Positions 1-13,370 of a DNA stretch of 13,370 bases are shown here, in pieces. Position 1 is the first letter of the stretch; each line of letters starts with the position of its first letter. Source of the DNA: a virus (taxonomy: Duplodnaviria > Heunggongvirae > Uroviricota > Caudoviricetes); IMG/VR virus record IMGVR_UViG_2909309443_000001; one strand, 5' to 3'. A model generated the notes under the pieces. The model did no database searches, was not told the origin of the DNA, and saw only the letters and a program-made list of their open reading frames with translations. Both the position numbers and the translations under genes were made by a program.

Positions 1-408
1 ATGGCAACTCTTAAATCAATAATGGCAATAACCACCTTAATAATTTCACTCAATGCATACGCAAACACGAATGACATTAAAACTCTTCAAAAACAACTGA
101 AACCATGGCGACCACTGGAAATCACAATAAAAGATAGCTCTCTTACCGTTGTTCTCCCTGGTAAAAAAATCACATCTGAAGCCTATAATCATTTAATTAT
201 GTCCGGTGTATGCACCCCACTTTGGACACATGACGCTCCTTCTTCATTTTTAAAAAATGTAAGTGAAATCAATATAGTTAACCAATATAAGTCTATTGGA
301 TATACCTTTGAAGACCCATTGGCCACATGCAATGAAATCGCTCCGTTAATGGAAAAACCTGCACAAACAGTGGTGTTATCCAAAACTCATACCTACACAG
401 GTAAGTAA
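1..408 (+). CDS. Hypothetical small secreted protein (135 aa) with a predicted N-terminal signal peptide
   Basis: ATG at position 1 and TAA at 406-408. The N-terminus MATLKSIMAITTLIISLNAYA has a hydrophobic core and an AxA-type cleavage site. Coding sequence is AT-rich. A hairpin terminator follows. No recognisable family. It lies outside the ogr end of the prophage, so it may be host or moron DNA. Confidence 0.5.
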   Translation: MATLKSIMAITTLIISLNAYANTNDIKTLQKQLKPWRPLEITIKDSSLTVVLPGKKITSEAYNHLIMSGVCTPLWTHDAPSSFLKNVSEINIVNQYKSIGYTFEDPLATCNEIAPLMEKPAQTVVLSKTHTYTGK

Positions 409-426
409 ATAGCTCAAATAAGATAA

Positions 427-450
427 AGCCCCTCGACTGAGGGGCTTTCT
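427..450. terminator. Bidirectional intrinsic terminator between the converging ORF 1..408 and ogr
   Basis: Stem AGCCCCTC (427-434), loop GACT, stem GAGGGGCT (439-446). A T-rich tract follows on both strands (TTCT on +, TTATCTTATTT on -). Confidence 0.6.
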
Positions 451-458
451 GCCTGTAA

Positions 459-677
459 TTACATCCACATAATTTGCTGCCCTGACGGCAACGGGTGCGG
501 CCTTACGGCGTGGACTTCTCCCGGCTTCACGATGTATCTCTGTACCGACTCATACGTGATGAACGTGGCGCTGCAATTCACGTTCTGGCACTGGTGATAA
601 CGCTCTTTTGTCGTGTCAGTGATATAGCGACTTGTACGCGCATGTGCGGCATGCTGGCATAAAGGACAATGAAACAT
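459..677 (-). CDS. ogr: Ogr, zinc-finger late-gene transcriptional activator (Ogr/Delta family), 72 aa
   Basis: Internal ATG at 677-675 gives MFHCPLCQHAAHARTSRYITDTTKERYHQCQNVNCSATFITYESVQRYIVKPGEVHAVRPHPLPSGQQIMWM, which matches my recollection of P2 Ogr including the CxxC...CxxxxC zinc finger. The longer ORF to 740 in the track is probably an upstream extension. Confidence 0.9.
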   Translation of the reverse strand: MFHCPLCQHAAHARTSRYITDTTKERYHQCQNVNCSATFITYESVQRYIVKPGEVHAVRPHPLPSGQQIMWM

Positions 678-758
678 CGCGAGCACCTCTTCCGGTTTTG
701 TTGATGGTGCTATTTTAGTTAATTTATCCTTATAAAACAAACAGATAAAATAAAAACA

Positions 759-1922
759 TCACTCATCATCTTCTGTTTCATACTCCACATCAGAAAGCCT
801 GACCTCAAGCTCCAAGGACGTCGTGAAGCCGCTATTATTCAGAAAATGTGTCACCTTAGTGATTGTCCAGTCCTGCTCGTCTATGACGCGCTTAAAACCT
901 GACACTTTGACCGGCGTTTCCGTGTAAATATCTGCCCGGCCGGTAGCCAGGCTGATGGAGAACTCTGCTACACCCCGTTGCAGTTTATCCCACTTCGCCT
1001 GAGCGGCACGCATGGCCTGTGCTTTCGTGGCATATACCGTGGTCAGGGCAAAAACGTTGTCAGCCTCACCGGCCATGTATTCACCTTCGCGCGCTTCCGG
1101 TACTTTTGGCGCTTTCTTCTGCCTGACCGGTTTCGCTTTCGGGTGCTCCAGTGCGCGCAGGTGTTTCTCTTTCTTTTTGCGTTTCAGTTTTACCTTCTGC
1201 TTTTGCGGCTTCGGGTCTTTGGTGTGAAGCCACTTTGCCGTTACGCCGGTATAGGCTCCACGGTCAGCAATCGCAAAATGGTGGCGGTCGCCGTCGCTGC
1301 GGGTTATGGTGACCTGCGGGATTTTTTTACCGCTGGCCGTCACCCCCTGCCCCGCTTTGAGAAACAACAGTTTTCCCATTTTTACCGAGACCTCACCACC
1401 GTTGCGTTCTGCAAGACGGGTCAGGAATTTCGCATCAGACTCCTGCGACTGGTCGATGTGCGGGATTTTAATTCCTGCCAGTGACGGCGCGACACTGGCT
1501 TCCAGCCTGTTACGGGAGGCTATCGCCTCAACAATCGCACCGAGCGTGGTGTCATGCCAGGAGCCTTCACGGCGGGAATTGAGCGTCCCGCGAAAATCTG
1601 CACTCCGGGCGCGGATGGTAACCACATCCGGTGCGCCCCGGTGTTCAACCTCATCAACGGTGAATTTCCCTTTGCATACCAGGGCAAAACCTTTCCAGCC
1701 GATATACACCGTCAGGACAGCGCCACGAACCGGCAGCCCGACCTGCCCGTCGGCATCGTTCAGTTCAATATCAAGCTGGTCAGCCTCAAAGCCCCGGTTA
1801 TCCGTCAGGGTCATGCTCATCAGACGGTCGCTGATATTGCCGGTAATATCCCTGCTGTCGAGCATCAGCATGTAATCCGGTGTCAGCGTACTGCCTGCAT
1901 CAAATGTCAGCGCATCCAGCAT
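759..1922 (-). CDS. D: Tail protein D (P2 gpD family), 387 aa
   Basis: 387-aa ORF, the same length as P2 gpD. It sits between U and ogr as in P2. Its ATG overlaps the U stop (TAATG). Confidence 0.88.
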   Translation of the reverse strand: MLDALTFDAGSTLTPDYMLMLDSRDITGNISDRLMSMTLTDNRGFEADQLDIELNDADGQVGLPVRGAVLTVYIGWKGFALVCKGKFTVDEVEHRGAPDVVTIRARSADFRGTLNSRREGSWHDTTLGAIVEAIASRNRLEASVAPSLAGIKIPHIDQSQESDAKFLTRLAERNGGEVSVKMGKLLFLKAGQGVTASGKKIPQVTITRSDGDRHHFAIADRGAYTGVTAKWLHTKDPKPQKQKVKLKRKKKEKHLRALEHPKAKPVRQKKAPKVPEAREGEYMAGEADNVFALTTVYATKAQAMRAAQAKWDKLQRGVAEFSISLATGRADIYTETPVKVSGFKRVIDEQDWTITKVTHFLNNSGFTTSLELEVRLSDVEYETEDDE

Positions 1923-2401
1923 TATCCCGCCCCCGTCATACCCGTGAATTTAGTCGCCATACTGCCAGCCTTACCGATGAGCGATTCCGCCTGTTTACCT
2001 ATATCGCCATAAAGCGCGGCCAGTGATTCATCAACGCGGGTAAGTGACAGCGTAAAATCAATTTTCCGGGGTGTGCCGTCTGCAAAGAAAATACTCCCTG
2101 TTTCACTCACCCTGCTGATGACATACATGCCGTAAATCATGCCGGTGCCATCCAGCAACGGCCACGCCCGGCCTTCCTCTGCCATCAGCCTGAGCGTGGT
2201 CATCGTCAGCTTGCCGCCGGTCAGTTCGGGATAAAGCACACCGGCAAGCGTGATGTTTTCCTCACCCACACCGAGAAACTGAAAGGCATCCCGTTTACCG
2301 ATACGGGAATTTGACGGCCAGCGATAATCTGATTCACGCTGCATGGTCTGGTGTGGCAGCGTCTGGCGCATAAAAACAAACATACCTAACGCGAGCATCA
2401 T
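1922..2401 (-). CDS. U: Tail protein U (P2 gpU family), 159 aa
   Basis: 159-aa ORF directly downstream of T and upstream of D, in the P2 order T-U-D. Confidence 0.88.
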   Translation of the reverse strand: MMLALGMFVFMRQTLPHQTMQRESDYRWPSNSRIGKRDAFQFLGVGEENITLAGVLYPELTGGKLTMTTLRLMAEEGRAWPLLDGTGMIYGMYVISRVSETGSIFFADGTPRKIDFTLSLTRVDESLAALYGDIGKQAESLIGKAGSMATKFTGMTGAG

Positions 2402-2415
2402 TGTTCGTCACCTCC

Positions 2416-4863
2416 TTAACCGTCATGCATCATGCTGGCACGGGCGCGCGCACGTTTATCCCGCTCGTATTTTTCGAGTGCATCCTGTAACTGGCGGTCA
2501 AGCTGTGTCCCCGGCGCAGTACCACCCGTAAGGCTGATGTGATATTCGTTTTTACTCTGGTCTACATAAGAGCGGCCAGCCGGTGCCGTGACCGGCTGAT
2601 AAGCCTGATAGCCTGCATAAGAGCTGGTCGCCGGAATATACCCACCGGTGCCATACGTGGCGGCATGAGTCCTTGCGGCGGTCTGGTCAAGTGTGTCTGA
2701 CTCTTTGTTGATAACACCGAGTTTTTCCAGTACCCAGTCAATACCGCTGCGCAGTTTGTTGAACGCATTAAGCGGCAGCATCAGCGCGTCAGCCAGTGCC
2801 TGCCCGAACATGACGCCCGTGTCACGGCAACGGTTCAGGGTGTCCCGGGTGGCTTTGACCGGGGCAATCAGGTTTTTAAACCACTGCCACGCGGCCTGTA
2901 ACTTTTCGCCCAGCCAGTCAAACACCGGCTTAAGTGGCGTGAACAGTTCCCCCACCGGCGCAAATGCCGCTTTCAGCCCTTCCACCACACCGCCAAAGAA
3001 TGCGCTGACAGGCTCCCAATATTTACGGATAAGCAACGCCCCGGCGACAATGGCGGCCACCACGGCCACAACCGGCCAGCTAATCGCCCCGATGGCCGTC
3101 ATAACAGCACTGCCAACCGTCGTGAAGATTGCCCCCATTGCGCCTGCTGCCGCGATGATGGCATTGATGCCAGTGATAACCGGCCAGGCTACGAGGCCAA
3201 TGGCACCGATGACAGCAGTCAGCGCCAGTGCACCACCGACAATGAGGCCGATGGTTGACGCCAGTGATTTGTTTTTCTGTATCCAGCCGTCGAGTTTTAA
3301 CACATACTTTGTGGCCGTCTGCGTGAGCTTACGCAGTGCGCCTTCCTGCTGGTCAAACAGGTCAGTCCCCACCGCCTCATAAGCGGACTGAAACTCCTTA
3401 AAGTCACCGCCGAGGTTGTCCTGCATGATATTTACCAGCTCGGCGGTCTTCCCGTCTGAGGCTTTAAACGCAGCGGTCAGTTTGTCCAGCTTTCCAGTTG
3501 AGGCGGCAGTCATCAGCACGGCGGCGGCTGAGCTGGCCTCCTCCCCGAAAATGGTTTTCATGTATTCAGCCTGCTGGGCAGTACCGAGCCGGTTTTTCTC
3601 AAAACTGGCCTGCATTTCTTTCAGAATGGTAAATACTGGTCGGGTGTTTCCCTTACTGTCTGAGGTTTTCACGCCAAGCTCTTTCAGTGCATCCCATGCT
3701 TTTCCCGTCGGTGCCTGCAGGCGACTTAACACGGCACGGCTTCCCGTCCCCGCCATTGAGCCTGTGATTTTTGCATCATGCAGCGCCCCGACCATTGCGG
3801 CGGTTTCTTCAATGCTGACACCGGCATTTTTTGCCACAGGTGCGGCATAGGTCAGCGCATCGCTCATGCCGTCAAAATCGGCGGCGGTTTTGTTCATCGT
3901 CATGGAGAGAACATCCCCGATATGAGCGACCTTATCGTTTGAAAGCTGAAAGGCGGATTTCATCCCCATCAGCAGGGCGGCGTTTTCTTCCATCGTGCGG
4001 CGGTTCGCCAGCGCCATATTCAGCGTGACCGGCGTTGCCGCCTGAATGGCATCAACATCCCCACCCGCTTTCGCGATGATTATCTGTGCACCGGCCGCAT
4101 CATCCGCCGAGGCGGCGGTATTGTCGCCGAGCTGGCGCGCCTGTTTGCGTAGCGCGGCCATTTCGGCGGAATCTTTTGCCACACCGAGCACGGCCTGCAA
4201 TTCTGAGTTTTTCTGCGCAAACTCATAACCGGGCATCAGCAGCTTAACTCCGGCCATCGTTCCCGCCGCCGCAATCCCCACACCGGCAGCGCCCACCGAG
4301 GCCATATTTCCGGCCAGTTCCTTGCCTGCCTGATAACGCTGTTTTACTGCGTTAAGTTTTGCCTGTTGTGCACTGACACGCGCCAGTGCGTCACGCTGAC
4401 GGTTAAGCTGTGCGGTGGTTTCACTGATACGGTTTTTCAGTCCCTGCTCATTATGTGCAAGATTGCGGGTATTAATTCCCACAGCGGCCAGTTCCCGCTG
4501 CTGGCGTTTAATGGAATCTGTCAGGCGGTTATATTTCGCCTGTAAGTCCTCCGCCGCACGCTTTGCGGATTCCAGCACTTTCGCCTGAGCACGGGTCGGA
4601 CGTTCAGTGTTTTTAAACTGTGTGGCAAGGGCTTCGGCCTCCTGCCGAGCCTTTTCAAGTGCATGACCAGTCACGGCAAGCTGTGCGCTGGTCTTGCGAA
4701 ATCCCTCAATACGGGATGCGTGACCGTTCAGCTCGCGCAGTGATTTTTGTGTTTCCCGGATATCCCCCGACAGCGACTTACTCGCTGTGCGGATGGATTT
4801 AAACGGGCGGGATGCCTGGTCAACAGCCCTGAGCAATACCTGTAATTTTACATTGTTACTCAT
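2416..4863 (-). CDS. T: Tail tape measure protein T (P2 gpT family), 815 aa
   Basis: 815-aa ORF, the same length as P2 gpT. Ala/Gly-rich with coiled-coil N-terminal part and hydrophobic central segments typical of tape measure proteins. The E' remnant stop overlaps its start. Confidence 0.9.
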   Translation of the reverse strand: MSNNVKLQVLLRAVDQASRPFKSIRTASKSLSGDIRETQKSLRELNGHASRIEGFRKTSAQLAVTGHALEKARQEAEALATQFKNTERPTRAQAKVLESAKRAAEDLQAKYNRLTDSIKRQQRELAAVGINTRNLAHNEQGLKNRISETTAQLNRQRDALARVSAQQAKLNAVKQRYQAGKELAGNMASVGAAGVGIAAAGTMAGVKLLMPGYEFAQKNSELQAVLGVAKDSAEMAALRKQARQLGDNTAASADDAAGAQIIIAKAGGDVDAIQAATPVTLNMALANRRTMEENAALLMGMKSAFQLSNDKVAHIGDVLSMTMNKTAADFDGMSDALTYAAPVAKNAGVSIEETAAMVGALHDAKITGSMAGTGSRAVLSRLQAPTGKAWDALKELGVKTSDSKGNTRPVFTILKEMQASFEKNRLGTAQQAEYMKTIFGEEASSAAAVLMTAASTGKLDKLTAAFKASDGKTAELVNIMQDNLGGDFKEFQSAYEAVGTDLFDQQEGALRKLTQTATKYVLKLDGWIQKNKSLASTIGLIVGGALALTAVIGAIGLVAWPVITGINAIIAAAGAMGAIFTTVGSAVMTAIGAISWPVVAVVAAIVAGALLIRKYWEPVSAFFGGVVEGLKAAFAPVGELFTPLKPVFDWLGEKLQAAWQWFKNLIAPVKATRDTLNRCRDTGVMFGQALADALMLPLNAFNKLRSGIDWVLEKLGVINKESDTLDQTAARTHAATYGTGGYIPATSSYAGYQAYQPVTAPAGRSYVDQSKNEYHISLTGGTAPGTQLDRQLQDALEKYERDKRARARASMMHDG

Positions 4864-5135
4864 TCGTGTTTCCGCTTCGCCGGAGCGCCTTTTCGCGCCA
4901 TGTGATGAGTTCGGTCAGGCTCATGGGATACAGTTCTGATGGCGGCCAGTGAAATATCACTGCCACATCCGCCATCAGGTCATCGACCGAGAGATTTTTC
5001 GGGAACGTTACTGCACCGAGTTCGGCGACAAAAAACCGACCACCTTACCGGCCAGCGCCACAAGGTCAGGCAGTTCCAGCGCGGCGACTTCCTGCTCGGT
5101 CAGCATCGGTGCCGTCATGCGCGGCAGCACCTTAA
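4856..5135 (-). pseudogene. E: 5'-truncated remnant of tail chaperone genes E and E+E', with the -1 frameshift module intact
   Basis: My translation of the minus strand gives ...VLPRMTAPMLTEQEVAALELPDLVALAGKVVGFLSPNSVQ* ending at TAA 5010-5008. An in-frame TAG at 5211-5209 lies upstream and there is no ATG for a full-length E. GGT TTT TTG at 5037-5029 carries the T TTT TTG slippery heptamer. The -1 frame is open from 5035 to the TAA at 4858-4856, overlapping the T start. Confidence 0.6.
5029..5035 (-). other. Programmed -1 ribosomal frameshift slippery heptamer T TTT TTG of the E/E' tail chaperone pair
   Basis: Plus strand CAAAAAA at 5029-5035. On the minus strand it is in frame as TTT TTG within the E remnant, and the -1 frame continues open for about 57 codons. 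Confidence 0.6.
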
Positions 5136-5136
5136 G

Positions 5137-5298
5137 CCGGAGAACATCGGGTCGCTGGGCGATATTGAGAAAGTGGCAAAGGTCTTTGTCCGCAATGAGC
5201 TTATCCCGCTACAGGACAGGATTCGGGAAATAAACGGCTGGCTCGGTCAGGAGGTCATCCGCTTTAAAAACTACTCACTGGACACTGACAACGGCTGA
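5137..5298 (+). pseudogene. Q: 3' fragment of portal gene Q (C-terminal ~54 codons)
   Basis: Plus-frame translation ...PENIGSLGDIEKVAKVFVRNELIPLQDRIREINGWLGQEVIRFKNYSLDTDNG* ends at TGA 5296-5298, followed by a strong terminator and then cos. This matches P2, where Q is read toward cos. The upstream part of ORF 4939..5298 in the track is antisense to E/E', so that ORF is a chimera. Confidence 0.5.
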
Positions 5299-5303
5299 AC
5301 ATC

Positions 5304-5325
5304 GCCGCCTGCGGGCGGCTTTTTT
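5304..5325 (+). terminator. Rho-independent terminator of the Q (portal) transcript
   Basis: Perfect GC stem GCCGCC (5304-5309), loop TGCG, stem GGCGGC (5314-5319), then a T6 run (5320-5325). It is oriented for plus-strand transcripts only. Confidence 0.65.
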
Positions 5326-5467
5326 ACACCCCGTCATCACGCCCTCACACGCTCACCACCGCACAAAACACCCCGCAGACACACCAACGCCCCGGCGCAC
5401 AATCTAAACGCCATCACGACGCGCTCAGACGCAGAAAAAATAAAATCAGCACCACCGCCAGCGCGCA

Positions 5468-5486
5468 GTGCTTTCCCCGCCTCGCC
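5468..5486. other. cos site: 19-nt cohesive-end sequence of the P2/186/P4 family
   Basis: Plus strand GTGCTTTCCCCGCCTCGCC is the reverse complement of GGCGAGGCGGGGAAAGCAC, which I recall as the shared 19-nt cohesive end of P2, 186 and P4. Its position between the A-distal cargo gene and the Q 3' end matches P2 genome ends. Confidence 0.7.
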
Positions 5487-5637
5487 CGCCCGCTTCATGG
5501 GTCGGTTTGAATGCAGTTGAATTACAACTACCAAACCAAGCAATCCCTACTATTACGCAGAAAATGCATACTGAAATACCTCGTGCAAATTGATGCAGCT
5601 AAGTATGCATAGGTTTTATGCCTCAACGTATACGTTA

Positions 5638-7470
5638 TCAAACAGAGCCCTGTTCAAAAACAGTATCAAAATATGGTAGGAGAGGATAAGCACACAGAAA
5701 GAAAATCAGGATGCATGCATATGTCGTTGTTTCATCGTAACAAGCATTAGTATATAAATTACCATGTGCTAATTTATGTCTTAAGGTTGCCCCACTCTTT
5801 CTGTTAAAAAGAACATCGATAGTCAAAACAAGATTTTTAGAAAAGATACTTTCCAAATCATCTCTGCATTTATCTAGAAGCTGAGAAATACTTGTTGACT
5901 CCTCTAATCCCTTATCCAAATATCTAGTAGCATCCTTTCCACTAAGCTCATAATAATAACGAACCATACCTTCCATTTGTGGTATTAAAAGATAAGCTGC
6001 ACTGATGTAATCTCCCTGCCATAATTTGTAAAAGCCCAAATTAAAAATCTCCCTAAACTCCGGCTTGACAATTGGACTAGTTGTAACCAATTTAACGAAT
6101 GTTGACAACGTCAAGCCATGTTCTTGAGAAAGTACATAGCGAGCAGGTTCAAAGACACCGTTTACAAAAATCTTATGAGTAATCTCGAAATTTCTTAGAT
6201 ATTGATCAATAACAACATCATCACTCATATCCTTTTTATTATCCAACGGCGGGATTGTATATATCTTACGCCCACTCTCATCATTAATTTCTGTTCCAAC
6301 AAAACTAGAGAATAAACTTTTTTCTGATAATCTTAAAACTTGTTCCCTCATGCTTTCAATATTTTCAATCGGTGTTTCACTCATTAAAACTTTGAATATA
6401 TCGGGCAAAGAACGCCCCGTCAGTTTTTTTTCACTTTCAGCAACCAAGTCACTAATATCAATAGAATGGCTTAAAGTGACATATTCACTCCTTACTTCTT
6501 CTCTCAAATTAGCAAGTTGTTCCTTTAAATCTTCTATCTGTTGGCTATCACCACCGTACTGTCTTAATTCAGAGATAGCTGTTCTTAACCAAGAGATCTT
6601 ACCCATATTATCAGGTCGTTCTGTTGCAACTTTAATAGTAATATTTGCAGATGCCAGTTTACATCTCTTGGCACGTTCATACTCACCATTTTTTTCATAA
6701 ATAACTGCACTTGTCATATAAAGTGATTTTACAGCATCATAATATTTTTTATCTTTATGCTGCTCAGCCATCTTCTCAGCATTTTCCGCATACTGCAGAT
6801 TATACCCATCAAAATCACGCACCATAAACCAAGTCAAATTATTGAAACCTTCAAAGATTAATCTTTCATTTTGAATACTATAAAGAGAATGAATGGCATT
6901 TTTAATCGCCATGTTTCCTTCTGATTTTCTAGGGTAGACCATTTTATTAATGTGCAAAGCCCTAGCAATATAATCACGAGCAAAAATAAAGCAATTTAAA
7001 TCACTTTCATCCATGCTTTCGTTTTTTATTATTGGCTTTTCAATTGCTATATTTAGCATTTCAGCATAGGAATCAATTGCTTTAATTGCCACGTCTTTAT
7101 TTTTCCGATTATTACACCAAACAACATCATATATTCTTGATAACAAAAATGGATTGGTTATTTTTTGAGAAACATATAAAAGACAGTCATTCACCTGCTC
7201 ATCAAAATCTTCAGGCAATATTGATCTTTTATTACCCCAAATCATTTGGGGTTCAAATGATGGAGTGTTGTTAACAACTTGCAAATTGAAACTATATAGC
7301 ATACCAAAAAGAGATGCTAATTTTTTCTCTTTGGGGTTTTCTGATGACTCAGCAATCCCATCCAGATATTTTTTTATTTTATGTGCATGAAATGTAACTG
7401 GTATATGCATAAAAACACTATAATCTAGTGTTTCAAGCTCTTCCCTTGTAAGAACAAAGATATCATTCAT
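5638..7470 (-). CDS. AT-rich cargo protein (~610 aa) at the tin/old position; candidate anti-phage protein with a C-terminal HEPN-like Rx4H motif
   Basis: Long minus ORF whose base composition is far more AT-rich than the flanking phage genes. ATG at 7470-7468 is preceded by AAAGGTGAAAACG (GGTG 6 nt upstream). The track's longer ORF to 7575 starts at a TTG only 15 nt after the A stop. C-terminus carries ...ATLRHKLAHGN... (R-x4-H). No Walker A motif. No recognisable family from sequence alone. Confidence 0.75.
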   Translation of the reverse strand: MNDIFVLTREELETLDYSVFMHIPVTFHAHKIKKYLDGIAESSENPKEKKLASLFGMLYSFNLQVVNNTPSFEPQMIWGNKRSILPEDFDEQVNDCLLYVSQKITNPFLLSRIYDVVWCNNRKNKDVAIKAIDSYAEMLNIAIEKPIIKNESMDESDLNCFIFARDYIARALHINKMVYPRKSEGNMAIKNAIHSLYSIQNERLIFEGFNNLTWFMVRDFDGYNLQYAENAEKMAEQHKDKKYYDAVKSLYMTSAVIYEKNGEYERAKRCKLASANITIKVATERPDNMGKISWLRTAISELRQYGGDSQQIEDLKEQLANLREEVRSEYVTLSHSIDISDLVAESEKKLTGRSLPDIFKVLMSETPIENIESMREQVLRLSEKSLFSSFVGTEINDESGRKIYTIPPLDNKKDMSDDVVIDQYLRNFEITHKIFVNGVFEPARYVLSQEHGLTLSTFVKLVTTSPIVKPEFREIFNLGFYKLWQGDYISAAYLLIPQMEGMVRYYYELSGKDATRYLDKGLEESTSISQLLDKCRDDLESIFSKNLVLTIDVLFNRKSGATLRHKLAHGNLYTNACYDETTTYACILIFFLCAYPLLPYFDTVFEQGSV

Positions 7471-7589
7471 CGTTTTCACCTTTTTCAGTATAAATTTGCA
7501 CACATTATTATTAGCAACATAATTATCAATAGTTAACACATGCAGATAAACAGCAATTTTACTATTATGCAACAAATTAAATCAGATGT
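7471..7589 (-). promoter_or_regulatory. AT-rich intergenic region between A and the cargo gene; putative cargo promoter and RBS
   Basis: About 119 bp of AT-rich DNA between the A stop (TAA, 7592-7590) and the cargo ATG. Contains TATACT and TTGATA hexamers on the minus strand and the GGTG RBS. No exact -35/-10 pair with ideal spacing was confirmed. Confidence 0.3.
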
Positions 7590-9872
7590 TTATTGCTCTG
7601 AATAACAATAAAACCAACTCCACTCATCAGCGACCGGATACGTAAATTTTTTCCCGTTGTAATTTACGATCGCGCCACGCGCCAGCGCCTCAAGCTCCCA
7701 TCGCTGCGGCCTGATACCGTTCTGAGCAAGGTCAACGCGGATACGGGTAATTTGCATTCTTTCCGACCGGGTCAGTCTGGCCGATGGCGCTATTTCATGC
7801 GGTTTTAACGGTCTTCCGTTTCTTTGCTGACGGTTTGGTCTTCTCAGGCCGTGTTTTAATGCGCCCCTGAGCGCCCTCACGACCTCCGGGTCATTCCATT
7901 CGATAACACCGTCATCAACCAGATTAAGCACTGCTGCGGCGTGCTCAGAAGGCGTGGGAGCCGGTAACGAAGTATCACCACCAGTGAGCTTTCCACAGTT
8001 ATTGACAGGACTCCGAGGCGCGGCGATGCCGCTTTTTAAAGTCAAAGGCTCAACGACCGGAACTTTCGGCACAATGCGCCAGTCCGTCGTTCTGGTGATA
8101 TGAATATGACGCGCGCCGAGATGCGGCGCGTAAATGCCGACCACTCTCTCGACTTCTTCCTCGTACTCGTTAACGTCATCCGACGGGCTACGGGCAACCC
8201 TGACAGTCTGACAATCGCGCGGGACATTTGCCCCACCCTGCGCGCTGATATACAACGCAAAATCACCACTGTCTGCAGCAGCGCGAGCAGCCTCGACGCG
8301 TTCGTCAAACTCATCAGCAATGCTGACGCCGCGAGGCAATTTGCGTAGTTCACGGTAAGCCCCCATTGTCGGCAGACCAACCGTTTTAAATTGCGGAATG
8401 CGCCACGTTGACGCCCATGCGGTAACAGCCGCAGCTGTGTCTTTCAGCGGCCTACCGGTATCATTATCGAGCTGACCATCCAGTGCATAGCCGTCGATGT
8501 TTTTTGAGATGTATTTCGCGATATATCCCGCAGCACCGCCCCGGTTAAGGTGTTTTGCCTGAAAACGGTTTCGCGCAGCTCCTCTTTCGTCGCCATCCTC
8601 TTTGAGCGCGTAGCGACGCATGATTTCAATAATCTGGTTACGCTGGCGTGGATTACAAAAAAGCATCATATGCCAGTGCGGCGTTCCGTCGTGGTGTGGC
8701 TCGACGACACGCAAACCGTAGACCTGTAAATCATTATCCTTGAATGCCGTGCGCATCAGGCTCCAGATATGGCAGAGATAACGCTGCGCATCCTTTGGAT
8801 TAAATGCCTCATCGTTCCAGCCGTGATTTAGCTGGACGGTTTTACTTTCGCCTTTTCCGACCTGACGTGTCGGGTGATACTTTGACGGCGCGGTAAGCGT
8901 GATAAACATCCCCACATCACCCTCTGCGGCGGCGTAACGCTCAATACCGGCAATGGTGTTCATCAGCTCCATCCGGCGAATTTCAGGATTAGAAATACTG
9001 CCCATCACCTTACTGATAAGGTCGATGCGTTCGCCGGTTTCCCTGTTTTCAAGGTCACACGATTTAAGAAATTCCAGATTTGCCTGGCGGCGTGCACGCA
9101 CATCACGAATGGCATGTTTACTGGCATAAGGTGAACGGTCTTTATTGACCTCCCCGACAGCAATCAGTAACGCCTCATGCCAGCGCATACGCTGGCCTTT
9201 AAGCTGACTAATCCACCACTCATCGTTAAACAGGCGGGCAATGGCAGAATATGCCTGCCTCGTGGTCATCTGTCCTTTACGGTATTTTTTCCAGTAGAGC
9301 GGGGAAATATTGAAAGCACGTGCAGCGCCAGCAACATGACCATAGAGGTGAGCCTGCGCCTCATCCGTAAACAGCGATTCTTTTTCGCCATGCGCATCCA
9401 CCCAGGCATCGCAGAGTTCCTCATACATAATGAAAAGCTGCGATGAGATACGGGCGGCAAACTTTTTCAGCTCCTTATCATTCATCCCCGGCAGACGCGC
9501 ATAATGGTCACGCTCTGCCAGAAACAGCAACGACGCGTCGGTGTTCATTTCATGGCGCTGATTCACGCGCTCAATGCGCGGCCATAAACGACGCTGAAAA
9601 GTGGATGTGAGGAAATAAAACCCGTGCACCGGGCTTTTATTGCGCCGGATGTAGTCATAGCGTGAAGTAAACAGCGAGCGCAAAAAGTAAGGCAGGCGGT
9701 TAATCGTGGATAAAACACCTTGCACCTGACGCATCTCGTCACGTGTAAGGGGTCTTTCGCGCCCGACGGCCTCGCGTGGCGCGTTCCATGCATAAGCACC
9801 GGTAAACGCCTTACCGGTGCCTGCAGCAAATGCTGACGGAGGGACAAAACGCCCGGAGGCTTTAACGGCCAT
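7590..9872 (-). CDS. A: Replication initiation endonuclease A (P2 gpA, rolling-circle initiator), ~760 aa
   Basis: First ATG at 9872-9870 gives MAVKASGRFVPPSAFAAGTGKAFTGAYAWNAPREAVGRERPLTRDEMRQVQGVL..., a length and N-terminus consistent with P2 A. The track's 774-aa version starts at a TTG. It follows orf83/B as in P2. Confidence 0.88.
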   Translation of the reverse strand: MAVKASGRFVPPSAFAAGTGKAFTGAYAWNAPREAVGRERPLTRDEMRQVQGVLSTINRLPYFLRSLFTSRYDYIRRNKSPVHGFYFLTSTFQRRLWPRIERVNQRHEMNTDASLLFLAERDHYARLPGMNDKELKKFAARISSQLFIMYEELCDAWVDAHGEKESLFTDEAQAHLYGHVAGAARAFNISPLYWKKYRKGQMTTRQAYSAIARLFNDEWWISQLKGQRMRWHEALLIAVGEVNKDRSPYASKHAIRDVRARRQANLEFLKSCDLENRETGERIDLISKVMGSISNPEIRRMELMNTIAGIERYAAAEGDVGMFITLTAPSKYHPTRQVGKGESKTVQLNHGWNDEAFNPKDAQRYLCHIWSLMRTAFKDNDLQVYGLRVVEPHHDGTPHWHMMLFCNPRQRNQIIEIMRRYALKEDGDERGAARNRFQAKHLNRGGAAGYIAKYISKNIDGYALDGQLDNDTGRPLKDTAAAVTAWASTWRIPQFKTVGLPTMGAYRELRKLPRGVSIADEFDERVEAARAAADSGDFALYISAQGGANVPRDCQTVRVARSPSDDVNEYEEEVERVVGIYAPHLGARHIHITRTTDWRIVPKVPVVEPLTLKSGIAAPRSPVNNCGKLTGGDTSLPAPTPSEHAAAVLNLVDDGVIEWNDPEVVRALRGALKHGLRRPNRQQRNGRPLKPHEIAPSARLTRSERMQITRIRVDLAQNGIRPQRWELEALARGAIVNYNGKKFTYPVADEWSWFYCYSEQ

Positions 9873-10137
9873 ATGAGCCAAAAGCCTCTGAACAACGCCT
9901 GCTGAGTTGCTCAACCTGCGCGTTTAAATCAGCAAAAGACTTTGCGCTTCCGGTCAGAATATCGTGATGCATCAGGCCGGAAACAAGCTGGCTTAATTTC
10001 GGGTAATAACCAACCACCGCCAGCCATTCCTGACCGGCGTTTTTACCGCTTTCCGCTCTCTTTTTCTCGTGGAGAATAAACTGGAAGCTGTCACTGGTAA
10101 CGACATAACGTTCGCCAATTTCAATACGAATACTCAT
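9862..10137 (-). CDS. Small hypothetical protein, P2 orf83-like (91 aa)
   Basis: ATG at 10137-10135 overlaps the stop of the upstream ORF (ATGA). Positioned directly upstream of A. Confidence 0.65.
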   Translation of the reverse strand: MSIRIEIGERYVVTSDSFQFILHEKKRAESGKNAGQEWLAVVGYYPKLSQLVSGLMHHDILTGSAKSFADLNAQVEQLSRRCSEAFGSYGR

Positions 10138-10358
10138 GCCGTTCTCCGGTAATGTTTGTTTTTTGCTTCAAAGACTGACTGACAGGAAACACAACGCGTG
10201 GCTGACGGATAAGCCGCACGACGGGCAGCAGGTATTGGCGCGTCACACTCTTCGCAAACCAGCGCAGAAGCACCGCAATGTTTTACCCTTGCCGCGTTAA
10301 TCTGGCGCTCCAGTAATTCAGCCTGTTGTTCCTGAATAAAATCTACGTTGTCCGGCAT
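10134..10358 (-). CDS. TraR/DksA-type C4 zinc-finger protein, P2 orf82-like (74 aa)
   Basis: Four cysteines arranged CxxxxxxxCxxC...CxxC (CGASALVCEEC...CVSC), typical of small phage TraR/DksA-family zinc-finger proteins. ATG at 10358-10356. Confidence 0.65.
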   Translation of the reverse strand: MPDNVDFIQEQQAELLERQINAARVKHCGASALVCEECDAPIPAARRAAYPSATRCVSCQSVFEAKNKHYRRTA

Positions 10359-10360
10359 TA

Positions 10361-10660
10361 TCAGTTCCTTTTATCGTTAAGTTTCCTGGATACATCAGCG
10401 CAATAACTGGCAAGTTCTGTCGTTAATTTTGTCAGTTCATCCACTGAGGAAATTTGCTTGTGGAATACAGCGCGTTTAACAAGTAAATTGACCACATCAG
10501 ACAGGAGGTTTAATTCATTCTGATAAATCGCGATAACAGATTCAGTGATGTCGCGTTTTTCTTTATCAAGACAAAGTTGAATAAGAGACAAATCGCCATT
10601 TTTCATAACGGCGATTTTTAAGGCGTTATTCAGTAATACAACTGAATGAGAACAGGACAT
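10361..10660 (-). CDS. Small hypothetical protein, P2 orf81-like (99 aa from ATG)
   Basis: The track's ORF starts at a TTG (10663). The next codon is ATG (10660-10658) and overlaps the stop of the upstream ORF (ATGA), suggesting translational coupling. Confidence 0.6.
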   Translation of the reverse strand: MSCSHSVVLLNNALKIAVMKNGDLSLIQLCLDKEKRDITESVIAIYQNELNLLSDVVNLLVKRAVFHKQISSVDELTKLTTELASYCADVSRKLNDKRN

Positions 10661-10884
10661 CAAAGTACCTCCCCGCGAGACAATCCGATATTGTGAAATT
10701 TTTCCGACTCCTGACTGAGCAGCTCGACTATCTCCACGCGGGATAACTCCGCCTTTGTGATGTGGCTAATCATGGCGTCAAGATGAGAAGAAAAGCGCGT
10801 CGCCGCGTCGGCCTGTGCTTCGGTTCTGGCCTGTTGCAGCAGTAATGCGTATTTACCGCACTGATTTTCAGAAACTGTATGCAT
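10660..10884 (-). CDS. Small hypothetical protein, P2 orf80-like (74 aa)
   Basis: ATG at 10884-10882 preceded by GGAGAAAGTC (GGAG about 8 nt upstream). Lies between B and the orf81-like gene as in P2. Confidence 0.6.
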
Positions 10885-10947
10885 GACTTTCTCCAGGCAA
10901 AAAGAAGCCCCGCACGATTAAGTGCGTTAAAAACTCTGGTTAATTAC

Positions 10948-11448
10948 TTAATGCAGATATTGCTCTGGTTTTACCGACGTCAGAATTGTCGGTGCATACT
11001 CAAACAGGCTGAATAATTCACGTAATGCACGGAATAAAGCATCACGCCAGTAACATGACTCTTCATTAATTCGCCAGTATGGCTGATTAAATTCTTTTTC
11101 AGTCAATCCGGCATGCATAAATAAAGTACGACGCTGACTGACTGTTAAAAAACTAATATATGCATACTCACTTGCGCCAACCTGACGGCGTTTTGAGAAT
11201 GCCCCACGCAGTTCATCAATTGCACAAACCAGCCGTTCACGTTCGACGTCGTTCATTTCTTCAAAACGCATCGTTGCGTGACGTTGTTTTAACTGCGCAT
11301 GAAAGCAAACTGTTAGCCGTTCGCGCTCCATCATCTGATTATAATAATCACATGTATCCTGCCAGCGAGGGACGGCAAGATGCTTACCAATTATCCGGCG
11401 CATAGCTGCTGGCTGTTTTTCGACGAGATTGAGCGTCATCACTGTCAT
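10948..11448 (-). CDS. B: Replication protein B (P2 gpB, helicase-loader-like), 166 aa
   Basis: 166-aa ORF, the same length as P2 B, beginning MTVMTLNLVEKQPAAMRRIIGKHLAVPRWQD.... Its ATG overlaps the stop of the preceding small ORF (ATGA). Confidence 0.85.
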   Translation of the reverse strand: MTVMTLNLVEKQPAAMRRIIGKHLAVPRWQDTCDYYNQMMERERLTVCFHAQLKQRHATMRFEEMNDVERERLVCAIDELRGAFSKRRQVGASEYAYISFLTVSQRRTLFMHAGLTEKEFNQPYWRINEESCYWRDALFRALRELFSLFEYAPTILTSVKPEQYLH

Positions 11449-11615
11449 TTCCAGACCCTCCGGCTTTTCAGAAAGGTCAGAGCCTTTTTTAACGGACTCT
11501 GTTTTTTGGTGCGGATAATGATTCCCTTGCGACCCTTCCCGTGGGTGATGGTGAAGTCAATCGCCCTGGGGCTTTCGTTACGCAATAACTGAGCAATACA
11601 ACGCGGCTCATTCAT
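11445..11615 (-). CDS. Small hypothetical protein, P2 orf78-like (56 aa from the internal ATG)
   Basis: ATG at 11615-11613 lies just after the cox stop. The track's longer version from 11642 would overlap the cox 3' end. Position matches the small ORF between cox and B in P2. Confidence 0.45.
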   Translation of the reverse strand: MNEPRCIAQLLRNESPRAIDFTITHGKGRKGIIIRTKKQSPLKKALTFLKSRRVWK

Positions 11616-11617
11616 AA

Positions 11618-11890
11618 TCACAACCCCATCCACAAAAGCCATGCATCACGCTGTTCAACCGGTCGGTTATAAAACGCCTCACGTACAGCGCGATTAAACT
11701 CAGGAATGAAAACCCATTTTTCACCGGCACGAGCCTTCGGTTTGCAAGGATCACGCAATTCAATAATTGGTAATTTATTTGCCTTCACCATTTCACTGAC
11801 GGCTGTCTTTGGCTTCCCTAATAAATCAGCAAATTTATCCACATGAACCGCATCAAGCGGATACTGAATCACATAATTTTCAGCGTCCAT
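11618..11890 (-). CDS. cox: Cox, excisionase and repressor of the lysogenic promoter (P2 Cox family), 90 aa
   Basis: ...ARAGEKWVFIPEFNRAVREAFYNRPVEQRDAWLLWMGL resembles the P2 Cox C-terminus as I recall it. ATG at 11890-11888 is preceded by GAGGGT about 9 nt upstream. It is divergent from C. Confidence 0.8.
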   Translation of the reverse strand: MDAENYVIQYPLDAVHVDKFADLLGKPKTAVSEMVKANKLPIIELRDPCKPKARAGEKWVFIPEFNRAVREAFYNRPVEQRDAWLLWMGL

Positions 11891-11905
11891 ATATGGTACC
11901 CTCAT

Positions 11906-12026
11906 AGGATCCAGCCCTTTCTAAACCACTCAAAACCGTTTAGACGCTGGTTTATTCTCAAATCAATGGAACCTATATAGGTTCCAGTTTTGAGGGAATT
12001 TAGTCCCTATATAGGCACCATGTCAA
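11906..12026. promoter_or_regulatory. Divergent early control region between cox and C (Pe/Pc promoters and operators)
   Basis: 121-bp intergenic region between divergent C and cox. Contains a perfect 18-bp palindrome GGAACCTATATAGGTTCC (11968-11985) and a second CCTATATAGG copy (12006-12015), each with a TATA-rich core suitable for -10 elements. Confidence 0.6.
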
Positions 12027-12320
12027 ATGAAATTAAGCGAAAAGATTAAGGCCTTGCGTGAGGCTGAAGGGCTAAGCCAATCAAAATTCTGTGAAATCAT
12101 AGAGTTACCGCTAAGCACACTTAAAAAATATGAAGGAGGAAACTTTGAACCCGGTGGCACAGCTTTGCTAAAAATCACTATGCATCCCACATTCCAAAAA
12201 TATGCTCTATGGCTTATGACAGATAAAACCGCGCCGGACGCAGGACAAATCGCACCGGCTCTCGCGCACATTGGGCCAGAGTCAACAGAGTCCAACCACT
12301 CCGCGAAAAGGATTGGCTAA
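12027..12320 (+). CDS. C: Immunity repressor C (P2 C family), 97 aa
   Basis: Small ORF divergent from cox and upstream of int, beginning MKLSEKIKALREAEGLSQSKFCEIIELPLSTLKKYEGG..., consistent with a small HTH repressor. The ...GQIAPALAH... segment resembles P2 C as I recall it. Confidence 0.8.
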   Translation: MKLSEKIKALREAEGLSQSKFCEIIELPLSTLKKYEGGNFEPGGTALLKITMHPTFQKYALWLMTDKTAPDAGQIAPALAHIGPESTESNHSAKRIG

Positions 12321-12389
12321 CTCTATATAAAGATTACATTTTCACCATTTGCTACCAAGATGGTGAATACAGCGCCGGAGGGCTTTCTT

Positions 12390-13370
12390 ATGGCAATTAA
12401 GAAGCTCGATGATGGTCGCTATGAAGTGGACATTAGACCTCGCGGTCGCGACGGAAAACGCATCCGCAGGAAATTCGAAAGAAAAGCTGAAGCACTAGCA
12501 TTTGAGCGATACACAATCGCCAATGCCAGTCAGAAAGAATGGGGAGGCCAGCGAGCAGACCGCCGGACTTTGAGTGAGTTGCTGGACATCTGGTGGAAAT
12601 ATCACGGGCAAAACCACGAGCATGGAACAAAAGAGTTTAATCATCTACTCAAAACCATCAGCGGCATAGGTGATATACCAGTGAGCAGGATGAGCAAAAG
12701 GGCTTTGATGGATTATCGTTCCATGCGACTACGTGATGGTATCAGTGCCGCAACGATAAACCGTGACATGTACCGATTATCCGGCATGTTCACAAAATTA
12801 ATTCAATTGGATGAATTTTCCGGGCAACACCCAATTCACGGACTGCCACCACTGGCGGAGGCCAACCCTGAAATGACGTTCCTGGAAAAAGCAGAAATCG
12901 AAAAACTGTTAAATGTTTTGGCTGGTGATGACTTACTTGTCGCGCTTTTATGTCTGAGCACTGGAGGAAGATGGACGGAAGTTGCCACGCTAAAACCAGC
13001 ACAGATTACAAATTGCAGGGTTACCTTCCTGAAAACCAAAAACGGTAAAAAGCGAACCGTGCCGATTTCTGAGGAACTGGAGAAAAAAGTTAAAGAGGAG
13101 GCCAGCGCCAAATTATTCAAAGTTGATTATGAGAAATTTTGCGGGATTTTACGCAGAGTGAAACCTGATATACCACCCAATCAGGCAACCCACATCCTGC
13201 GGCATACATTCGCAAGCCATTTCATGATGAATGGGGGCAATATAATCGCACTGCAACAGATTCTGGGACATGCGAGCATTCAGCAGACGATGGCCTATGC
13301 GCACCTTGCGCCTGACTATCTGCAAAATGCCGTCGCTCTGAATCCACTAAAGGGCGGAGTGACGTTATAA
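12390..13370 (+). CDS. int: Tyrosine integrase (P2 Int family), 326 aa from the second ATG
   Basis: MAIKKLDDGRYEVDIRPRGRDGKRIRRKF... matches the P2 integrase N-terminus as I recall it. C-terminal region has the HxLRHT...Y catalytic pattern (ATHILRHTFASHF...MAYAHLAP). GGAGGG lies 8 nt upstream of ATG 12390. An alternative ATG is at 12360. Stop TAA is at 13368-13370, the window end. Confidence 0.9.
   Translation: MAIKKLDDGRYEVDIRPRGRDGKRIRRKFERKAEALAFERYTIANASQKEWGGQRADRRTLSELLDIWWKYHGQNHEHGTKEFNHLLKTISGIGDIPVSRMSKRALMDYRSMRLRDGISAATINRDMYRLSGMFTKLIQLDEFSGQHPIHGLPPLAEANPEMTFLEKAEIEKLLNVLAGDDLLVALLCLSTGGRWTEVATLKPAQITNCRVTFLKTKNGKKRTVPISEELEKKVKEEASAKLFKVDYEKFCGILRRVKPDIPPNQATHILRHTFASHFMMNGGNIIALQQILGHASIQQTMAYAHLAPDYLQNAVALNPLKGGVTL

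Follow-up and report, generated by a model that had tools for sequence, protein, structure and literature searches.

The locus examined here raises the question of how the 3' ends of a portal gene, Q, and a tail chaperone gene, E, came to abut within a P2-like element. The whole stretch of DNA analysed, 13,370 nt, is referred to as the window. An earlier note had proposed a single deletion between Q and E, with its junction somewhere within 5120-5150. The reading favored here, with a probability of roughly 0.93, is a P2-like (Peduovirus) prophage that carries one internal, homology-independent deletion between the two genes.

The window was compared with P2 (AF063097) by blastn. Its orientation is opposite to that of the standard P2 map, and the two sequences have four collinear blocks in common. 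Window 425-5135, which holds ogr, D, U, T, E' and the 3' part of E, aligns to P2 24288-19578 (4711 nt, 97.1% identity, ungapped, E=0), and window 5134-5486, which holds the Q 3' end, tQ and cosL, aligns to P2 351-1 (93.2%, E=2e-149). The remaining blocks are window 5468-5530, which is cosR, and window 7620-11616, which matches P2 30286-26290 and extends from A through orf78. Both blocks in the stretch 4864-5300 are collinear with the P2 Q and E 3' ends, as the proposed deletion demands, and collinearity on both flanks is also seen with intact prophages at the same chromosomal site. In a three-line alignment the window follows the E-side parent until 5135 and the Q-side parent from 5134, placing the joint inside the interval of the earlier note at nucleotide resolution. 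The only bases common to both parents at this point are the 2-nt AA, and this is the full extent of the microhomology. A second intact parent gave the same joint call. The T/E-side match ends at window 5135 in the 2,241 complete genomes that match the joint stretch. The features at the joint are as follows.

5134..5135, no strand: deletion joint, AA common to both parents, P2 19578 joined to P2 351
5134..5298, plus strand: 3' fragment of portal gene Q, last 54 codons and stop (from translation)
5008..5135, minus strand: 3' fragment of tail chaperone gene E, gpE residues 51-91 and the joint codon (from translation)
4856..5035, minus strand: E' extension and E+E' -1 slippery site (GGTTTTTTG, about 5028), identical to P2
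5304..5325, plus strand: tQ, rho-independent terminator of the lost P operon (from P2 annotation and terminator mapping)
5468..5486, no strand: cos, intact 19-nt cohesive-end sequence, 19-mer GTGCTTTCCCCGCCTCGCC (from sequence and P2 blastn)
4939..5298, plus strand: chimeric 119-aa ORF created by the deletion, antisense E/E' in frame with the Q C-terminus

The two truncated reading frames have the form that the earlier note ascribed to them. The Q fragment is 54 aa long, is identical to gpQ residues 291-344 at 52 of 54 positions, terminates in IRFKNYSLDTDNG and a stop, and leads into tQ and the cos 19-mer. The minus strand from 5136 to 5008 translates as LKVLPRMTAPML...NSVQ and a stop, is identical to gpE residues 51-91, and thus spans codons 50/51-91 of E. 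An in-frame TAG lies 27 codons upstream of this fragment, there is no ATG, GTG or TTG ahead of the native Val codon at 5130 that could start it, and its pF promoter is gone. E' is also left on the minus strand, and both E' and the slippery site are intact yet orphaned and now functionless. Gene finders call the chimeric 119-aa ORF across the joint, and it is annotated as a gene in public assemblies; it is probably no real gene and is an annotation trap of which annotators should be warned. These data support the joint as a deletion scar at which two ORFs, both lacking their N-termini, abut.

The window lacks P2 352-19577, a loss of 19,226 bp (19.2 kb) when counted on P2. In the two closest intact relatives, the prophages of Ecol_867 and 377323_2f, the same two points are separated by 17.9 and 16.9 kb, respectively. 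The figure of ~15 kb in the earlier note was therefore an underestimate. By the P2 annotation, the loss covers most of Q; all of P, O, N, M, L, X, Y, K, lysABC, R, S, V, W, J, I, H, G, FI and FII; and the 5' half of E. It includes the lysis cassette, the baseplate and fibre genes, the terminase genes P and M, and the scaffold gene O. All four Ogr-dependent late promoters (pP, pO, pV and pF) also lie inside P2 352-19577, so Ogr has no remaining target and T-U-D has no promoter of its own. With N, O, P, M, Y, K, FI, FII and others gone, the remnant would be unable to make phage or to lyse the cell. The deletion also accounts for the position of T-U-D-ogr straight after cos, the cargo gene and the early region; the earlier note had already offered this explanation for the early and cargo region.

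The idea that the joint is an artefact of assembly, a chimeric collapse with the late genes really present, was evaluated by an exact-sequence look-up of the chimeric ORF. The window is 100% identical to CP024266.1, a finished E. coli chromosome, and the same joint occurs in the Logan assemblies SRR29077645 (2 SNPs over 13,370 nt) and ERR1937332 (1 SNP over the same length). The joint is not a misassembly because it is present in three independent assemblies, one a finished chromosome and two built from independent short-read sets. This is the outcome of the check for misassembly that the earlier note had named. The joint was found in 0/5,426 complete RefSeq E. coli genomes, and the exact 32-nt joint had no match in GTDB representative genomes or in metagenome contigs. 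This rarity is what can be said for an artefact beyond the general possibility of one. Against it, the contigs cross both flanks of the joint, and there is no collapse-prone repeat there, the two sides having merely 2 nt in common; an artefact is hardly credible. By these sequence comparisons, the joint is inherited within a narrow lineage, and the element is a lineage-specific defective P2-like prophage.

The scar fits a break in E, 42 codons before its end, that was joined at the 2-nt AA overlap to a break in Q, 54 codons before its end, with the removal of 17-19 kb. The ends were most likely joined by RecA-independent illegitimate recombination or by end joining in the integrated prophage. 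The integrated state is the most likely setting because phage propagation is impossible for a genome that has no head or lysis genes. By chance alone, 16.5% of random joints have an overlap of at least 2 nt, and because such overlaps are this frequent, the AA is weak evidence for a microhomology-driven mechanism. We did not detect an IS element at or near the joint or anywhere in the window, which rules out an IS-mediated adjacent deletion.

The deletion between Q and E proposed in the earlier note is borne out. Its singleness fits the one novel joint that we see, as would nested deletions. In the nested scheme the joint is the last of several deletions, and related remnants with smaller deletions (N::FI, P::FI and Y::T) could represent the intermediates. 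Those remnants have their own distinct joints and belong to other lineages, however, and the window has one joint only and no other lesion. A nested history is accordingly judged unlikely, and a one-step deletion is the probable course. The product is a 13.7-kb defective prophage that would give neither lysis nor particles and in which the following are left: the repressor, int, cox, B, A/ori, cos, a candidate defence gene, T, U, D and ogr. All of the genes left in the remnant are full length, and because every one of them is still intact, the event appears to be recent. No exact parent was found; among intact relatives, the best matches are mosaics with 97-98.6% identity. The remnant may persist as a harmless element whose immunity and defence genes are perhaps useful.

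The element as a whole measures 13,695 bp and sits between fieF and cpxP, with a copy of a 27-bp direct repeat, the att core, at each end. Its remaining features are as follows.

Just outside the window on both sides: att cores (L007 1-27 and 13696-13722, corresponding to L005 4874-4900 and 18569-18595)
459..677, minus strand: ogr, late activator, its four target promoters deleted
759..1922, minus strand: D, intact
1922..2401, minus strand: U, intact
2416..4863, minus strand: T, tape measure, 815 aa, intact
5638..7470, minus strand: cargo gene at the P2 old/tin position, DUF7380, PADLOC candidate defence PDC-S39
7590..9872, minus strand: A, replication endonuclease, intact
10948..11890, minus strand: B and cox, intact
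12027..13370, plus strand: repressor (not P2-type immunity) and integrase, intact

The putative ori lies near 8014, placed there from P2 29892. The integrase (window 12390-13370) has 70-80% nucleotide identity to P2 int over two short aligned stretches (window 12376-12514 and 13177-13350). Neither the cargo region (5530-7620) nor the immunity region (11616-12376) is P2-like, and the latter has no nucleotide match to P2. The element is thus a mosaic, with non-P2 immunity and att specificity (fieF/cpxP), yet with T-U-D and A regions that are 97% identical to P2. The cargo gene matches PADLOC PDC-S39 with E=1e-84 and, from this match, is probably a defence gene. It is co-directional with A, whereas P2 old/tin is not. 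The cargo region (window 5300-7700) is present in 55 complete genomes in which at least 80% of its length is matched, and the best matches are 99.4-99.8% identical. A 135-aa ORF (window 1-408, plus strand) lies between ogr and attR and has no Pfam or PADLOC match. It adjoins ogrK in 17-21 of 5,426 complete genomes (21 with any match, 17 with at least 80% of window 1-460 covered), and it is present at the same site in the intact relatives and missing from other prophages there. This ORF is probably a moron.

The intact elements P2, Ecol_867 and 377323_2f have the same gene order as the window and are 93-98.6% identical to it in nucleotide sequence on either side of the joint, and the Ecol_867 and 377323_2f prophages occupy the same att site (fieF/cpxP) as the window element. 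The cos site, tQ, the E+E' slippery site, T-U-D-ogr and the early operon are common to the window and to P2 and the intact relatives. The window differs from P2 in lacking 352-19577, in its non-P2 immunity and integrase, in having DUF7380/PDC-S39 in place of old/tin, and in having a further 135-aa ORF past ogr. Two other non-mobile P2 derivatives with accessory or defence genes are the ogrK/D' remnant of E. coli K-12, which is far more reduced than the window element, and the cryptic P2-like prophage of E. coli B. Eight other defective P2-like prophages, with different breakpoints in each, resemble the window: they still have cos with a fragment from the P/Q side, as well as U-D-ogr and the early region, and they no longer have genes for lysis, baseplate and fibres. 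A class of defective P2 elements with retained defence genes is already known (PMC13586616), and those elements and the window are alike non-mobile P2 derivatives with accessory or defence genes.

Two other classes were considered. The satellite P4 is like the window element in being small (11.6 compared to 13.7 kb), in having a P2-type cos and in needing P2 late genes for packaging. A P4-like satellite was rejected, as alpha primase, sid, psu, delta and the P4 integrase are absent and the Pfam content of the called genes is P2-type. An R-type or P2-like tailocin was likewise rejected, as the sheath, tube, baseplate, fibre and lysis genes are all in the deleted interval. High-identity P2 collinearity on both sides of the joint, chromosomal integration with att direct repeats, and the absence of essential late genes together with truncated ORFs at the scar were all found. 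The window element is an ordinary defective prophage, a known kind of thing.

The intact genes invite a different view of the remnant as a satellite-like mini-P2 that excises, replicates via A/ori, and is packaged through cos by a helper P2-like phage. All of int, cox, the repressor, B, A/ori, cos and ogr are intact. In addition, contig ERR1937332_8 is delimited exactly by the two 27-bp att cores, opening with base 1 of the left core and closing with the final base of the right one, and these are the ends that a coexisting P-core-P' junction would give. Logan graphs are built with k=31 (PMC12424806), and at this k an empty attB alone would add 3 host bases to each contig end. The contig ends, on which this point is based, suggest a P-core-P' junction (an excised circle or a tandem copy) beside the integrated form. 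A tandem duplication, however, accounts for these ends equally well. The three copies with visible flanks occupy one site and are 1-2 SNPs apart, a pattern that indicates clonal descent rather than spread. A capsid-size determinant is absent, and an element of 13.7 kb would require dimer packaging. Mobilization as a mini-P2 is highly unlikely, and a defective prophage inherited with its host chromosome is the preferred reading.

The window was used as a query to find many other P2-like remnants, and eight further joints were mapped. The sample is biased toward window-like structures, the remnants having been found by similarity to the window. The strains and their joints are as follows.

W13-16: Q::upstream of E
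38A23CPO011: P::T
PE15: P::FII
E3: N::FI
E423: P::FI
01G17CRGN001: P::FI
ETEC1748: Y::T
AF44: O::FI

Together with the window these are nine joints from independent events at three att sites, and the window joint is in none of the other eight. The bases at the joints are listed below.

TA: L002 9375-9376; L003 4643-4644; L004 8222-8223; L009 7731-7732
GTTA: L011 9255-9258
AA: window 5134-5135; L010 7327-7328
TT: L014 6556-6557
T|A: L013 ~3627

The joints fall almost solely at A/T dinucleotides, mostly TA, with A/T-rich overlaps of 1-4 nt, and the calls were unchanged with alternative parents. In a simulation on P2 as the null, the probability of TA given a 2-nt overlap was 0.011, and the probability of an overlap composed entirely of A/T, given one of at least 2 nt, was 0.127. 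Breakpoints also recur. On the late side, the remnants of 01G17CRGN001 (L011) and AF44 (L014) break at one and the same place in FI (CCGGTTACCG, P2 18031-18034), each with its own partner and att site, and the breakpoints of E3 (L009 7732) and E423 (L010 7328) are 15 nt apart (P2 18476 and 18461). The A/T bias over the nine joints suggests that joining is not sequence-neutral.

These observations are the case for deletion at quasi-sites by a sequence-preferring enzyme, either a 2-nt-stagger recombinase or nuclease or a TA/AA-preferring activity, and a Cin/Hin-type invertase adjoins FI in some of the intact relatives. The joints number only nine and come from an ascertained sample, however, and P2, on which the null was computed, is not the exact parent. 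Neither an extended motif nor a terminal inverted repeat was seen to be shared by the partner sites, and Hin/Cin half-site geometry does not appear to match the joints. Hin/Cin quasi-sites, IS630-type TA targeting, gyrase exchange and transposon-like excision each seem an unlikely source of the TA bias, as no terminal inverted repeats or half-sites appeared to fit. We found no enzyme or motif that accounts for the A/T bias and the breakpoint recurrence, and a literature search for TA-biased deletion joints returned nothing relevant. A sequence-preferring enzyme is doubtful, with some chance of being correct, and illegitimate joining is the preferred account of the window scar. In strain 167 (L015 6988-9911), an IS21 element (ISEc12) links the invertase gene by FI to a truncated A; this IS21-associated deletion took out cos along with every head gene and is a different route to a defective P2.

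The broader proposal is that P2-like deletions are non-random, occurring at TA/AA and at recurrent FI sites through a specific activity, and that the resulting cos+ int+ cox+ A+ remnants, the window element among them, may still be excising, replicating, helper-dependent carriers of defence genes. We give this proposal little credence. The A/T bias at the joints and the possible residual excision are leads, not findings.

The locus records that one E. coli lineage has disarmed a P2-like prophage while keeping its immunity and a candidate defence gene, which is of little significance in itself. If the A/T bias and the breakpoint recurrence hold, the set of scars may constitute a natural data set on prophage inactivation.
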